A stretch of 24,000 nucleotides of DNA from Pelotomaculum sp. (GCA_050950345.1 JBMNHK010000002.1:284698-308697), one strand, 5' to 3'; shown: positions 6,182-8,263, numbered from the stretch's first letter. Program-made: numbers and translations. The notes: generated by a model from the letters alone, not told the origin.

Positions 6182-6210
6182 TTGACAACTGCTGGATAGG
6201 GTGGTACAGT
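6182..6210 (+). promoter_or_regulatory. Candidate sigma-A promoter of the T-box leader
   Basis: TTGACA (6182-6187), a 17-nt spacer ending in TGg (extended -10), then TACAGT (6205-6210). Confidence 0.55.
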
Positions 6211-6220
6211 AGTAAAATCA

Positions 6221-6506
6221 AAGGCTATGACGGAGAGAAAAACGCATTTAATGCCGGAAAGCCGCTGGTACAGCGGTGCAGAGATTCTGCGGTTGGTGCG
6301 AGCAGGACCCGTAACAATGCGTATAAATACACTTCTGAGCCGGTATGTTGAACTGAGTAGGCATACCCGGGCGCCTCCGTTACAGGGCTAGGGTTGATGG
6401 ACCCGAACAGAGTGACAGCCGTATTTCCCGGTTGTAATAAGGGTGGTACCACGGAAGTGATATGCTTTCGTCCCTTGGGCGTTTTGCCCGGGACGAAAGC
6501 TTTTTT
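6221..6506 (+). promoter_or_regulatory. T-box riboswitch leader with predicted specifier codon UAC (Tyr)
   Basis: Stem I base ggc/gcc has a K-turn (uaugac / uga) and helix ggag (6232-6235)/cuuc (6332-6335). Helix acgcauu (6242-6248)/aaugcgu (6316-6322) follows. The 3' side of the specifier loop is AUAAA-UAC-A (codon 6328-6330, purine 6331). Other elements: AG bulge AGAGA (6280-6284); distal loop GGUUGGUGCGA (6291-6301); Stem II ggtatg/catacc with AGUA; F-box CCGUUA (6377-6382); T-box core AAUAAGGGUGGUACCACGG (6436-6454) with bulge UGGU. Confidence 0.88.
6464..6506 (+). terminator. Intrinsic terminator of the T-box leader (attenuator)
   Basis: gctttcgtccc (6464-6474) pairs perfectly with gggacgaaagc (6490-6500). 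An inner gggc/gccc helix extends the stem, and it is followed by TTTTTT (6501-6506). The 5' arm segment CCCUU (6472-6476) can instead pair with AAGGG (6439-6443) of the T-box to form the antiterminator. Confidence 0.9.
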
Positions 6507-6555
6507 GTTCCCGGGAAAAATGCTTCTCCATCAAATAAAGTTTTGGAGGGTTATC

Positions 6556-8016
6556 ATGGCAACCAGTCAACAAGTAGTACAGTTTTTTTCGGGGGAAAAC
6601 ATTCCCCTGGAGATGCACAAAGCCCGCATGGTACAGCGCCTAAACCTGCTCCCTGTTGGCGAAAGGCTCAGGGCAATCCAGGAGGCCGGAAGCAATACGT
6701 TTCTTCTGCGCAACCGCGATGTTTACCTGGATATGCTTACTGACAGCGGCGTTAACGCAATGAGCGATGCCCAGTATGCGGCGATGATGCGCGCCGACGA
6801 CAGTTATGCCGGTTCAGAGACATTCTACCGTGTCACTGACGCATTAAAGGAGCTTTTTGGGACAGAGTACTTTCTCCCGGCTCATCAGGGAAGAGCCTGT
6901 GAAAATATTTTGGCTAACGTCTTTGTGCGTCCTGGCAGCACCGCGATTATGAACTACCATTTTACCACTACCAAGGCCCATATCACCCGGTTGGGCGGTA
7001 AGGTGGCGGAGGTTGTGAGCGATAAAGGGCTGGAGACAGTATCCGATGAACCTTTTAAAGGGGATCTGGATATGGACAAGCTGAGTGCTGTCGTGGAGCA
7101 AGTCGGTGTGGAAAATGTCTCATTTGTGCGTATTGAAGCGGGGACAAATTTAATTGGCGGGCAGCCGGTTTCCCTGCAGAATATGAGAGAAGTTTCTGCT
7201 TTCTGCAGACAGCATGGACTTTTGCTGGTGTTTGACGCCAGCCTTCTGGCTGACAACCTGTTCTTCATTTGTACACGGGAAGAAAGCTGCAAAGACCGCC
7301 CGTTAGGCGATATCGTGCTGGAGATCGCCTCTCTGATGGATATCATCTACTTTTCCGCCCGCAAGCTGGGGTGCGCGCGTGGTGGCGGGATTGCCACCAA
7401 TAACGAGGAACTCTTCCTCAAGATGCGGGATCTGGTTCCACTGTATGAGGGCTTCTTGACCTACGGGGGCATGTCGGTGCGGGAAATGGAAGCTATGGCT
7501 GTTGGTCTTCTCGAAACATTGGATTTCCATGTCATCAGCCAGACCCCCATATTTGTGGAGGCCCTGGGTAATGAGCTGATGCAACATGGAGTGCCCGTTG
7601 TAACGCCCCTGGGTGGGTTGGGCTGTCACCTCGATGCCAAACGGTTCGTCGAGCATATTCCTCAGGAGCAGTACCCTGCTGCAGCCCTCAACGCAGCTGT
7701 TTATATCGCCAGCGGCATCCGCGGCATGGAGCGGGGAACCATGTCGGAACAGCGCAACGAAGACGGTACCGAGCATTTAGCTGAAATGGAGTTGGTACGC
7801 CTTGCCGTGCCGAAGCGGGTATTCTCATTATCCCAGATCAAATTTGCAGCCGACAGGATTGCGTGGCTATATAATAACCGGCATCTAATTGGCGGTATGG
7901 AATTTTCGGAAGAGCCGCCGACACTTCGCTTTTTCCTTGGCCGCCTGCGCCCGATGGGGGGCTGGCAGGAGAAGCTGGCAAGCAAGTTCCTGGCCGATAT
8001 GCCATCGGGATTATAA
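6556..8016 (+). CDS. PLP-dependent beta-eliminating lyase, tyrosine phenol-lyase/tryptophanase family (TPL-like)
   Basis: 486 aa counted from ATG 6556, which has RBS GGAGGG at 6545-6550; the ORF-track start at 6394 lies inside the T-box leader. Collinear similarity to TPL/TnaA as recalled: LLTDSG.NAMSD, SYAGS, HQGR, FTTT, NL.GGQPVS, FDAS, a SARK PLP-lysine region, YGG, MERG, VRL..P.R and LRFF. Confidence 0.85.
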   Translation: MATSQQVVQFFSGENIPLEMHKARMVQRLNLLPVGERLRAIQEAGSNTFLLRNRDVYLDMLTDSGVNAMSDAQYAAMMRADDSYAGSETFYRVTDALKELFGTEYFLPAHQGRACENILANVFVRPGSTAIMNYHFTTTKAHITRLGGKVAEVVSDKGLETVSDEPFKGDLDMDKLSAVVEQVGVENVSFVRIEAGTNLIGGQPVSLQNMREVSAFCRQHGLLLVFDASLLADNLFFICTREESCKDRPLGDIVLEIASLMDIIYFSARKLGCARGGGIATNNEELFLKMRDLVPLYEGFLTYGGMSVREMEAMAVGLLETLDFHVISQTPIFVEALGNELMQHGVPVVTPLGGLGCHLDAKRFVEHIPQEQYPAAALNAAVYIASGIRGMERGTMSEQRNEDGTEHLAEMELVRLAVPKRVFSLSQIKFAADRIAWLYNNRHLIGGMEFSEEPPTLRFFLGRLRPMGGWQEKLASKFLADMPSGL

Positions 8017-8074
8017 TGGTATAATTGCCGGCAGTTCAACCTAGCAATTATTCAATTATTTTTTTCCTTTAGCC

Positions 8075-8122
8075 AAGGTGGTTATGATTCGCCTGTTTTT
8101 AGGCCATCATAACCACCTTTTT
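8075..8122 (+). terminator. Rho-independent terminator after the lyase gene
   Basis: A perfect 14-bp inverted repeat, aaggtggttatgat (8075-8088) / atcataaccacctt (8106-8119), has an inner gcct/aggc helix. A T-run spans 8118-8122. Confidence 0.8.
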
Positions 8123-8176
8123 ATGATCGACTAACCTATCTTTTTGATGCTTTTGCCCAAAAAGATTGTTTTTTGG

Positions 8177-8225
8177 TTGAAATTATTCAAAAAACTTGTT
8201 AAATTCTATGCGCCGGGCTTATACT
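8177..8225 (+). promoter_or_regulatory. Candidate promoter region for the pur cluster (two overlapping possibilities)
   Basis: Option 1: TTGAAA (8177-8182), 17 nt, then TGt-TAAATT (8197-8205). Option 2: TTGTTA (8196-8201), 18 nt, then TATACT (8220-8225). I cannot choose between them from sequence alone. Confidence 0.35.
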
Positions 8226-8263
8226 TCTTAGTAAGTATTTATTACCAGAGGGAGAGATAATAA

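Follow-up and report, generated by a model that had tools for sequence, protein, structure and literature searches.

A predicted tRNA-Tyr T-box, exchanged in relatives for Tyr leader peptides, upstream of a tyrosine phenol-lyase-like gene in Pelotomaculum sp.

Why should a gene for an enzyme resembling tyrosine phenol-lyase (TPL) stand behind an RNA switch that would turn it on when tyrosine runs short? The question is raised by a locus of Pelotomaculum sp., within a stretch of 24,000 nucleotides (GCA_050950345.1, JBMNHK010000002.1:284698-308697; the whole stretch is called the window below, and positions count from its first letter), in which a T-box leader immediately precedes a gene for a 486-amino-acid pyridoxal 5'-phosphate (PLP) enzyme. 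A first-pass annotation, made from the sequence of the window, had read the leader as specific for tyrosine and the enzyme as a TPL homologue that supplies it. As far as comparative sequence analysis can carry such a claim, we are nearly certain that a transcriptional T-box for tRNA-Tyr controls this monocistronic lyase-like gene; the explanation that we favour as a whole, and consider reasonably probable, joins this regulation to a TPL-like lineage and to the formation of tyrosine.

The leader is confirmed as a genuine, complete transcriptional T-box, with a match far beyond chance: the Rfam T-box model RF00230 aligns end to end (model positions 1-219) with window positions 6218-6478 of the + strand at 105.5 bits (E 1e-22), against a gathering score of 93 bits. 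Every element named by the first-pass annotation was recovered at its position, with UAC in the specifier slot. The elements of the leader and its gene are as follows.

6182-6210, + strand: sigma-70-type promoter, with TTGACA (6182-6187), a 17-nt spacer and a TG-extended TACAGT (6205-6210); 10/12 matches
6218-6478, + strand: full T-box leader, with Stem I, Stem II with S-turn, IIA/B, F-box, Stem III and antiterminator (RF00230)
6218-6343, + strand: Stem I, with K-turn, specifier loop, AG bulge and distal loop (73.6 bits with model R1, described below)
6280-6284, + strand: AGAGA of Stem I (T-box alignment)
6295-6301, + strand: distal loop GGUGCGA (T-box alignment)
6328-6330, + strand: specifier UAC (Tyr), then A6331 and the lower-stem strand CUUC (6332-6335); register from the Rfam alignment
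6377-6382, + strand: F-box CCGUUA (sequence and RF00230 alignment)
6440-6476, + strand: antiterminator with the T-box sequence (Rfam alignment); bulge UGGU at 6444-6447, partner of the tRNA 3' end ACCA (A73)
6464-6506, + strand: intrinsic terminator GCUUUCGUCCC..GGGACGAAAGC + U6, hairpin 6464-6500 (folding, shuffles)
6545-6549, + strand: ribosome-binding site GGAGG, 6 nt ahead of the ATG at 6556
6556-8016, + strand: lyase-like gene for the 486-amino-acid PLP enzyme of Beta_elim_lyase fold, from ATG 6556 to a stop codon ending at 8016
8075-8124, + strand: downstream intrinsic terminator, hairpin 8075-8119 + U5; -27.9 kcal/mol, z -7.7

Aligned to the Rfam model, the specifier loop has UAAA-UAC-A on its 3' side, ahead of the helix strand CUUC, and the lower stem of Stem I is GGAG/CUUC, with a K-turn. 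The T-box sequence AGGGUGGUACCACG occupies 6440-6453 and includes the UGGU bulge. The terminator at 6464-6506 has z-scores of -3.9 and -4.4 in two folds, and none of 200 shuffles folds equally well; because its 5' arm is also the 3' strand of the antiterminator (the strand UUUCGUCCC, common to both), the two structures are mutually exclusive. Bacterial tRNA-Tyr carries A73 as its discriminator base. The earlier remark that the UGGU bulge fits A73 holds as consistency with tRNA-Tyr, but the bulge is not diagnostic and does not discriminate among tRNAs. As long as tRNA-Tyr is charged, the terminator would form and transcription would stop; were uncharged tRNA-Tyr to accumulate, its GUA anticodon would pair with the UAC specifier in Stem I and its free ACCA end with the UGGU bulge, so that the antiterminator would be stabilised and the enzyme made. 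We regard the unit as monocistronic because the strong downstream terminator (8075-8119 plus U5) closes the gene. On the upstream side no terminator-like site was found between the guaA stop (6089) and the T-box promoter (6182), as already remarked in the first-pass annotation, which raised the possibility of read-through from hpt-guaA.

As an RNA, this T-box is an ordinary representative of an established family. The Tyr-class T-boxes of B. subtilis tyrS and of the B. cereus-group tyrosine biosynthesis genes and phhA have the same K-turn, specifier loop, AG bulge/distal loop, Stem II with S-turn, F-box, Stem III, UGGN bulge and competing terminator, with UAC and UGGU in the same roles. The difference lies in the target, a TPL-like lyase that is absent from the surveys of Wels 2008 (PMC2494555) and Sun 2013 (PMC3766115, with supplements), and in the fact that in some lineages the T-box of this gene is swapped for, or stacked with, a Tyr leader-peptide attenuator.

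How firmly the specifier can be read as tyrosine was assessed by comparison. A protein-alignment scan of species-representative genomes (GTDB) returned at least ~589 pattern-confirmed matches, and 80 loci were examined. A T-box scoring 83-149 bits lies directly upstream of the orthologue in 13 of the ~26 Bacillota loci among these, and all 13 have UAC in the same slot as the window. Together with the window they provide 14 leaders, which cover Oscillospiraceae, Christensenellales, Tissierellaceae, Halanaerobiales and Bacilli. Five leaders (L026, L052, L015, L079 and L056) have the exact sequence GAA-UAC-A followed by the helix, and this canonical S-turn/codon/purine layout fixes the register of the specifier. 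Fourteen further Bacillota loci lack a T-box at the Rfam gathering threshold, and an Rfam search in E-value mode found none in the actinobacterial loci L054, L070 and L073.

The 14 Stem I sequences, aligned with MAFFT, have a mean column identity of 51%, with a few invariant blocks that include TAC, AGAGA and the GGUG of the distal loop. RNAalifold recovered only the distal helix from this alignment, the middle helices being lost because insertions shift them out of register, and a partial structure was supplied by hand for model R1, a Stem I covariance model built from the 14 leaders. When searched against 80 metagenome contigs obtained with a different query protein, this model identified 55 further leaders (32 distinct), each upstream of an orthologue and every one with UAC. 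Across the 32 independent leaders, all 11 of the 11 modelled Stem I pairs show compensatory change and 98.3% of cells are paired, compared with 18-48% for slid partners, and the observed level is reached in 0 of 500 shuffles; in the distal helix, 5 of 5 pairs are compensatory. Overall, UAC is invariant across 47 distinct orthologous leaders, with the rest of Stem I at ~51% mean column identity. The tyrosine call is thereby upheld, and the leader alignment that the first-pass annotation had proposed shows both the conserved UAC and covarying Stem I pairs. The arrangement also occurs in a cultured organism, Anaeropeptidivorans aminofermentans M3/9, with a T-box of 132.9 bits, UAC-A and UGGU. The bulge is UGGU in all orthologous leaders except L147 (~1152-1500), the sole orthologous Tyr T-box with UGGA, which would imply a U73 partner; its specifier is still UAC.

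Some orthologous loci appear to read the same signal by another device. We screened the loci that lack a T-box for runs of Tyr codons. In a rumen Clostridiales locus (L075), a promoter and ribosome-binding site are followed by the open reading frame (ORF) MKQRINFTAEYYYYYYRDGVAVLL, a terminator (CUCCGCAGC..GCUGCGGAG plus a U-tract), and then the ribosome-binding site and ATG of the lyase; in an Oscillospiraceae locus (L080), the Tyr-run ORF MTNNRITKLNSYYYYGLR is likewise accompanied by a terminator. These leader ORFs hold 4-6 consecutive Tyr codons, and those of the L075 type are 23-25 codons long. Runs of at least 4 Tyr codons are rare, with 5 in 1.53 Mb of locus sequence (both strands), 2 of which are the L075 and L080 leaders. 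A metagenome scan with the L075 protein supplied relatives of this locus: the seven closest (L085-L091; 85-99% protein identity) have no T-box and a conserved leader, M..AEYYYYY(Y)..VAVLL, then a terminator, and relatives at 77-82% identity mostly have a Tyr T-box in place of the leader peptide. Proteobacteria, Bacteroidota, Spirochaetes and Actinobacteria loci hold only scattered YYY triplets, which we did not count as leader peptides, as they lack the layout of ORF, ribosome-binding site and terminator.

The aligned L075-type leaders have the makings of an attenuator. Segment 2 (AGCUGUUUUGCUG) has two alternative partners, segment 1 just before the Tyr run and the 5' arm and loop of the terminator, and helices 2:3 and 3:4 are each ~95% paired in the 7 leaders (20-62% in slid controls), although support from covariation is weak because the seven vary little. 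In minimum-energy folds of L075, the terminator gives way to an antiterminator when the first Tyr codons are masked as if covered by a ribosome, and it returns when the ribosome is placed at the stop codon. With the trp, his, phe, leu and thr leaders of Proteobacteria these loci share a promoter, a ribosome-binding site, an ORF of regulatory codons, 1:2, 2:3 and 3:4 helices and a terminator; they differ from them in using Tyr codons, in their Clostridia hosts (in which T-boxes are usual), in their single lyase-like target and, in three contigs, in standing in tandem with a T-box. In these three AT-rich contigs (L102, L104 and L108) a leader ORF, MIKSINIQFNYYYYVWKK.., with its own terminator is followed by a complete Tyr T-box and then the gene; in L104 (505-935) the ORF lies at 518-598, the terminator at ~621-655 and Stem I of the T-box at 690-798, with L102 and L108 similar. 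The T-box antiterminator of the L104 type is nested in a longer helix, GUUCAUAA../..UUAUGAAC + U7, an unusual terminator geometry. Two mechanistically independent read-outs of tRNA-Tyr charging on one gene imply that the gene would be on under tyrosine starvation, and we regard the convergence of T-box and leader peptide as a strong comparative argument that cells want its product when they are short of tyrosine.

What, then, is the product? Pfam assigns the 486-amino-acid protein to Beta_elim_lyase, and the only NCBIfam model that it passes is the broad PRK13238 'tryptophanase' subfamily. It falls short of the TPL equivalog TIGR02618 (444.4 bits, cut-off 720.7) and of both tryptophanase equivalogs (TIGR02617, 321 against 825.8 bits; NF053783, 374 against 750 bits). 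Its best solved relatives are TPLs (~41% identity, E 1e-117), with tryptophanases behind, and source annotations label it as tryptophanase or TPL. In an exhaustive search of 1.84 billion representatives the clade forms one full-length 50%-identity cluster, 62% identical to the query; its sister group stands at 47-48% identity and canonical enzymes at 42% or less.

A survey of 161 orthologues (residues in C. freundii TPL numbering) shows which parts of the active site are kept. Y71, F123, T124, N185, D214, K257, Y291, M379, R381, R404, F448 and F449 are invariant in 161/161, among them the PLP lysine (K257) and a phenol pocket of the TPL type (T124, R381, F448/F449, Y71). The triplet T124/R381/F448 parts TPL-type representatives from tryptophanase-type ones, which have D, then I, L or V, then H; the clade has T/R/F. 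Six substitutions are invariant in the clade as well (E69D, T216S, R217L, K256R, M288F and H343L), and position 262, N in TPL, is R in 154 and K in 7 of the orthologues. Five of the altered positions, E69, R217, K256, N262 and H343, which we take to be the PLP O3'/phosphate contacts and the monovalent-cation site of TPL, are kept by TPL-type and nearly all TnaA-type representatives and are all replaced in the clade. We may speculate that Arg262, facing Asp69, could stand in for the K+ ion.

Set beside TPL (EC 4.1.99.2, TIGR02618; C. freundii 2EZ1/1TPL), the protein has in common the fold, ~41% identity, K257 and the pocket residues, and differs in E69D, T216S, R217L, K256R, N262R(K), M288F and H343L, in ~13 extra N-terminal and ~20 extra C-terminal residues, and in its predicted induction by starvation. 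With tryptophanase (TnaA; TIGR02617, NF053783), the name that pipelines usually give it, it shares fold, family and the PRK13238 match, but it has T124/R381/F448 rather than D/(I,L,V)/H, and its specifier is Tyr, not Trp. The first-pass assignment is right about the TPL/tryptophanase family and the TPL-type phenol pocket and wrong if taken to mean a bona fide TPL, given the failed equivalog and the five lost residues; judged by its sequences, the clade is not canonical TPL but a third lineage within the TPL/tryptophanase family, compact and horizontally mobile. A sister lineage (P0127, 47% identity) has the pattern D69/S216/R256/R262/F288/L343/H346 as in the clade, but Met217, and may stand at the origin of the remodelled active site. 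More distant relatives of ~850-930 amino acids (P0122-P0126, P0129, P0131, P0133 and P0136; 33-38% identity to the query) contain two Beta_elim_lyase halves and match the query over two stretches, as fused double-domain proteins.

The clade is large and widely scattered, comprising the at least ~589 pattern-confirmed matches in species-representative genomes and thousands of proteins. Its hosts include Bacillota, Bacteroidota, Spirochaetota, Desulfobacterota, Verrucomicrobiota, Acidobacteriota, Planctomycetota and Actinomycetota, as well as purple bacteria and one archaeon, and identity between phyla is 58-72%. Many carriers are rumen and gut contigs, including human gut; others come from biogas reactors, sediments and phototrophs. 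Clustering of 622 neighbouring ORFs from the 80 species-representative loci by all-against-all BLASTP yielded no conserved partner, and the neighbours that recur, in 3-7 loci, are generic: an ATP-binding cassette (ABC) exporter, [FeFe]-hydrogenase/NuoF-like subunits, a PfkB kinase and a small membrane protein. Gene context accordingly gives no functional clue, and the wide spread, the cross-phylum identity and the missing neighbour suggest a self-contained, horizontally mobile function. Two contigs (Logan; L082 and L083, 6032-11226) carry a 100% identical lyase with purE and a truncated purB on a different genomic backbone, with differing hpt and guaA, an insertion sequence with an rve integrase separating guaA from the lyase, and an isolated GMP_synt_C fragment after purB; the segment appears to have been transferred horizontally, or recombined, in recent times. 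A NiCo riboswitch directly downstream of the orthologue in L052 (6625-6731) and a flavin mononucleotide (FMN) riboswitch near that of L058 (8747-8870) probably belong to unrelated neighbouring units.

Taken together, a tyrosine shortage would induce the gene through the T-box, the Tyr-codon leader peptide or both, and the enzyme could then form tyrosine by either of two routes: from environmental phenol, pyruvate and ammonium by reversal of alpha,beta-elimination, or from phenol and serine or cysteine by beta-replacement. Either route would salvage phenol as tyrosine in the anaerobic settings of gut, rumen and digester, which the carriers inhabit and in which phenol is available. Given induction by tyrosine starvation and a phenol pocket that is intact, the tyrosine-forming direction is the most likely one; we infer it from the regulation and lean towards it by a small measure only. 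A 1974 study of the rumen reportedly found phenol carbon entering tyrosine. Its title, as cited in PMC5288341, names phenol as a precursor in the 'ruminal biosynthesis of aromatic amino acids'. TPL catalyses tyrosine formation from phenol and has been exploited for it, and is used preparatively and in cells for tyrosine analogues from phenols (PMC13174591). The proposed net reaction also resembles that of the engineered 'tyrosine synthase' TyrS, derived from the tryptophan synthase beta-subunit, which joins phenol to a three-carbon amino-acid donor (PMC13174591); TyrS is man-made and has the TrpB fold (type II), whereas the protein here is natural, of fold type I, and its activity is proposed from regulation.

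The regulatory context fits supply. Surveyed T-box regulons hold supply genes, namely tyrS, tyrT, tyrA, aro genes, phhA and transport (PMC2494555, PMC3766115). TyrR, together with tyrosine, switches on classical tpl (PMC1173090), and the sign of regulation is inverted here, where induction would come with starvation: the devices found are predicted to act on uncharged tRNA-Tyr, and not by the tyrosine-inducible, TyrR-type regulation of Citrobacter and Erwinia. The preference of the first-pass annotation for tyrosine supply over catabolism is strengthened by the Tyr leader peptides and the tandem devices; its 'tyrosine synthase' activity is still argued from regulation. That the clade as a whole represents a natural, phenol-assimilating tyrosine synthase, with a remodelled cofactor and cation site and switched on under tyrosine starvation in gut, rumen, termite and digester anaerobes of many phyla, we advance only tentatively.

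Several observations weigh against this explanation. No recognisable Tyr-sensing leader was found in ~11 of the 26 Bacillota loci or in any of the non-Bacillota loci examined, and in L080 the simple ribosome-masking model left the terminator in place. The five conserved residues replaced in the clade mean that its chemistry may depart from that of TPL beyond what sequence-based prediction can foresee. The 80 loci offer no conserved transporter, phenol-generating decarboxylase or aro/tyr neighbour, and the window contains no tRNA-Tyr gene, its sole tRNA being tRNA-Val(CAC).

One rival, which we consider unlikely, is that the enzyme supplies tyrosine by other chemistry, such as the racemisation of D-tyrosine, the release of tyrosine from some other beta-substituted amino acid, or the conversion of such an amino acid. 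Regulation alone says only 'tyrosine supply', and the replacement of R217, H343, K256, E69 and N262 suggests an altered reaction; on the other hand, T124, R381, F448/F449 and Y71, with which TPL holds and activates the phenol ring and protonates the ipso-carbon, are invariant in all 161 sequences, a constraint that is hard to explain without C-beta/C-gamma chemistry on a phenolic side chain.

Also improbable is a role in antimetabolite defence, with the lyase destroying tyrosine analogues such as the L-DOPA (L-3,4-dihydroxyphenylalanine) and the halogenated, nitro- and meta-tyrosines of plant diets. An analogue would compete at tyrosyl-tRNA synthetase (TyrRS), charging of tRNA-Tyr would fall, and the T-box or leader peptide would switch on; both sensors read tRNA-Tyr charging and not tyrosine concentration, so a charging inhibitor would indeed induce the gene. 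The pocket is kept but position M288 is F and other active-site residues are altered, changes that could alter the choice of substrate; TPL acts on ring-substituted compounds (PMC13174591); and the plant-fed gut habitats, rumen and termite, would suit such a role. Described T-box regulons, however, consist of supply genes. To our knowledge there is no earlier case of a T-box governing a detoxifying lyase. With its TPL-type pocket the enzyme would probably cleave tyrosine too, which would be counter-productive in starvation, and the clade also occurs where exposure to analogues is not obvious (biogas reactors, sediments, phototrophs).

We give very little credence to an ordinary catabolic TPL, or a tryptophanase, that has come to lie behind a T-box by chance. 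TPLs are its best PDB matches (~41% identity, E 1e-117), the PRK13238 'tryptophanase' cut-off is passed and the annotations say tryptophanase or TPL, but the TPL (444 against 720.7 bits) and TnaA (321 against 825.8 bits) equivalogs failed and the signature residues of tryptophanase are absent. A tyrosine-degrading enzyme induced by uncharged tRNA-Tyr would be maladaptive, classical tpl regulation has the opposite sign (PMC1173090), and a linkage that recurs in 47 distinct leaders, and that evolved a second time with Tyr leader peptides, is not accidental. Finally, a shifted register reading ACN (Thr) or AUA (Ile), formally possible in a human-gut and rumen subgroup with C or G rather than the usual purine after UAC (AAUUACC/GUCC, where a +1 register would give ACC/ACG + G), is rejected as next to negligible, since the U of UAC is invariant in the 47 distinct leaders and the fourth base varies (A/C/G), five leaders have the exact GAA-UAC-A frame, the leader peptides of sister loci bear runs of Tyr and not Thr or Ile codons, and the enzyme pocket is of the tyrosine type.

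The remainder of the window places the lyase unit between hpt-guaA on one side and purE-purB-purM-purN-purH-purD on the other. The purE operon has no preceding purine riboswitch or other Rfam element (8017-8263), only promoter-like hexamers at 8177-8225. Elsewhere in the window are the tRNA-Val(CAC) gene (378-452) and a PhdYeFM/ParE toxin-antitoxin pair (590-1175). Directly upstream of hisD-hisC-hisB, a 105-amino-acid ORF of the TrpR family (PF01371; 14863-15180, + strand) can be likened to HisR, a regulator of histidine genes described in Gram-positive bacteria (PMC9413887).

No report of T-box control of a gene of the TPL/tryptophanase family was found in the literature or in the T-box regulon surveys searched, in line with what the first-pass annotation had surmised, although an earlier mention is possible. 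What appears to be new is the T-box target, the third TPL/tryptophanase lineage with its inverted regulatory logic, and the exchange and stacking of T-box and leader peptide. The Tyr T-box regulon is thereby widened beyond synthetases, the shikimate/tyrA pathway, phhA and transporters, and the locus family, in which two unrelated sensors of tRNA-Tyr charging take each other's place and occur in tandem on one orthologue, should be useful for the study of how RNA regulators evolve. A natural enzyme tuned for making tyrosine from phenols would be of interest for biocatalysis and genetic-code expansion, for which TPL and TyrS have been evolved (PMC13174591). For a large cross-phylum clade that goes under the wrong name of tryptophanase or TPL in annotation pipelines, the regulation provides a testable physiological role. 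If phenol is consumed, metagenomic proxies for uremic toxins that count 'tryptophanase' or 'TPL' (e.g. PMC10571392) would misclassify the genes of this clade, and genes now counted as indole or phenol producers would partly be phenol sinks.

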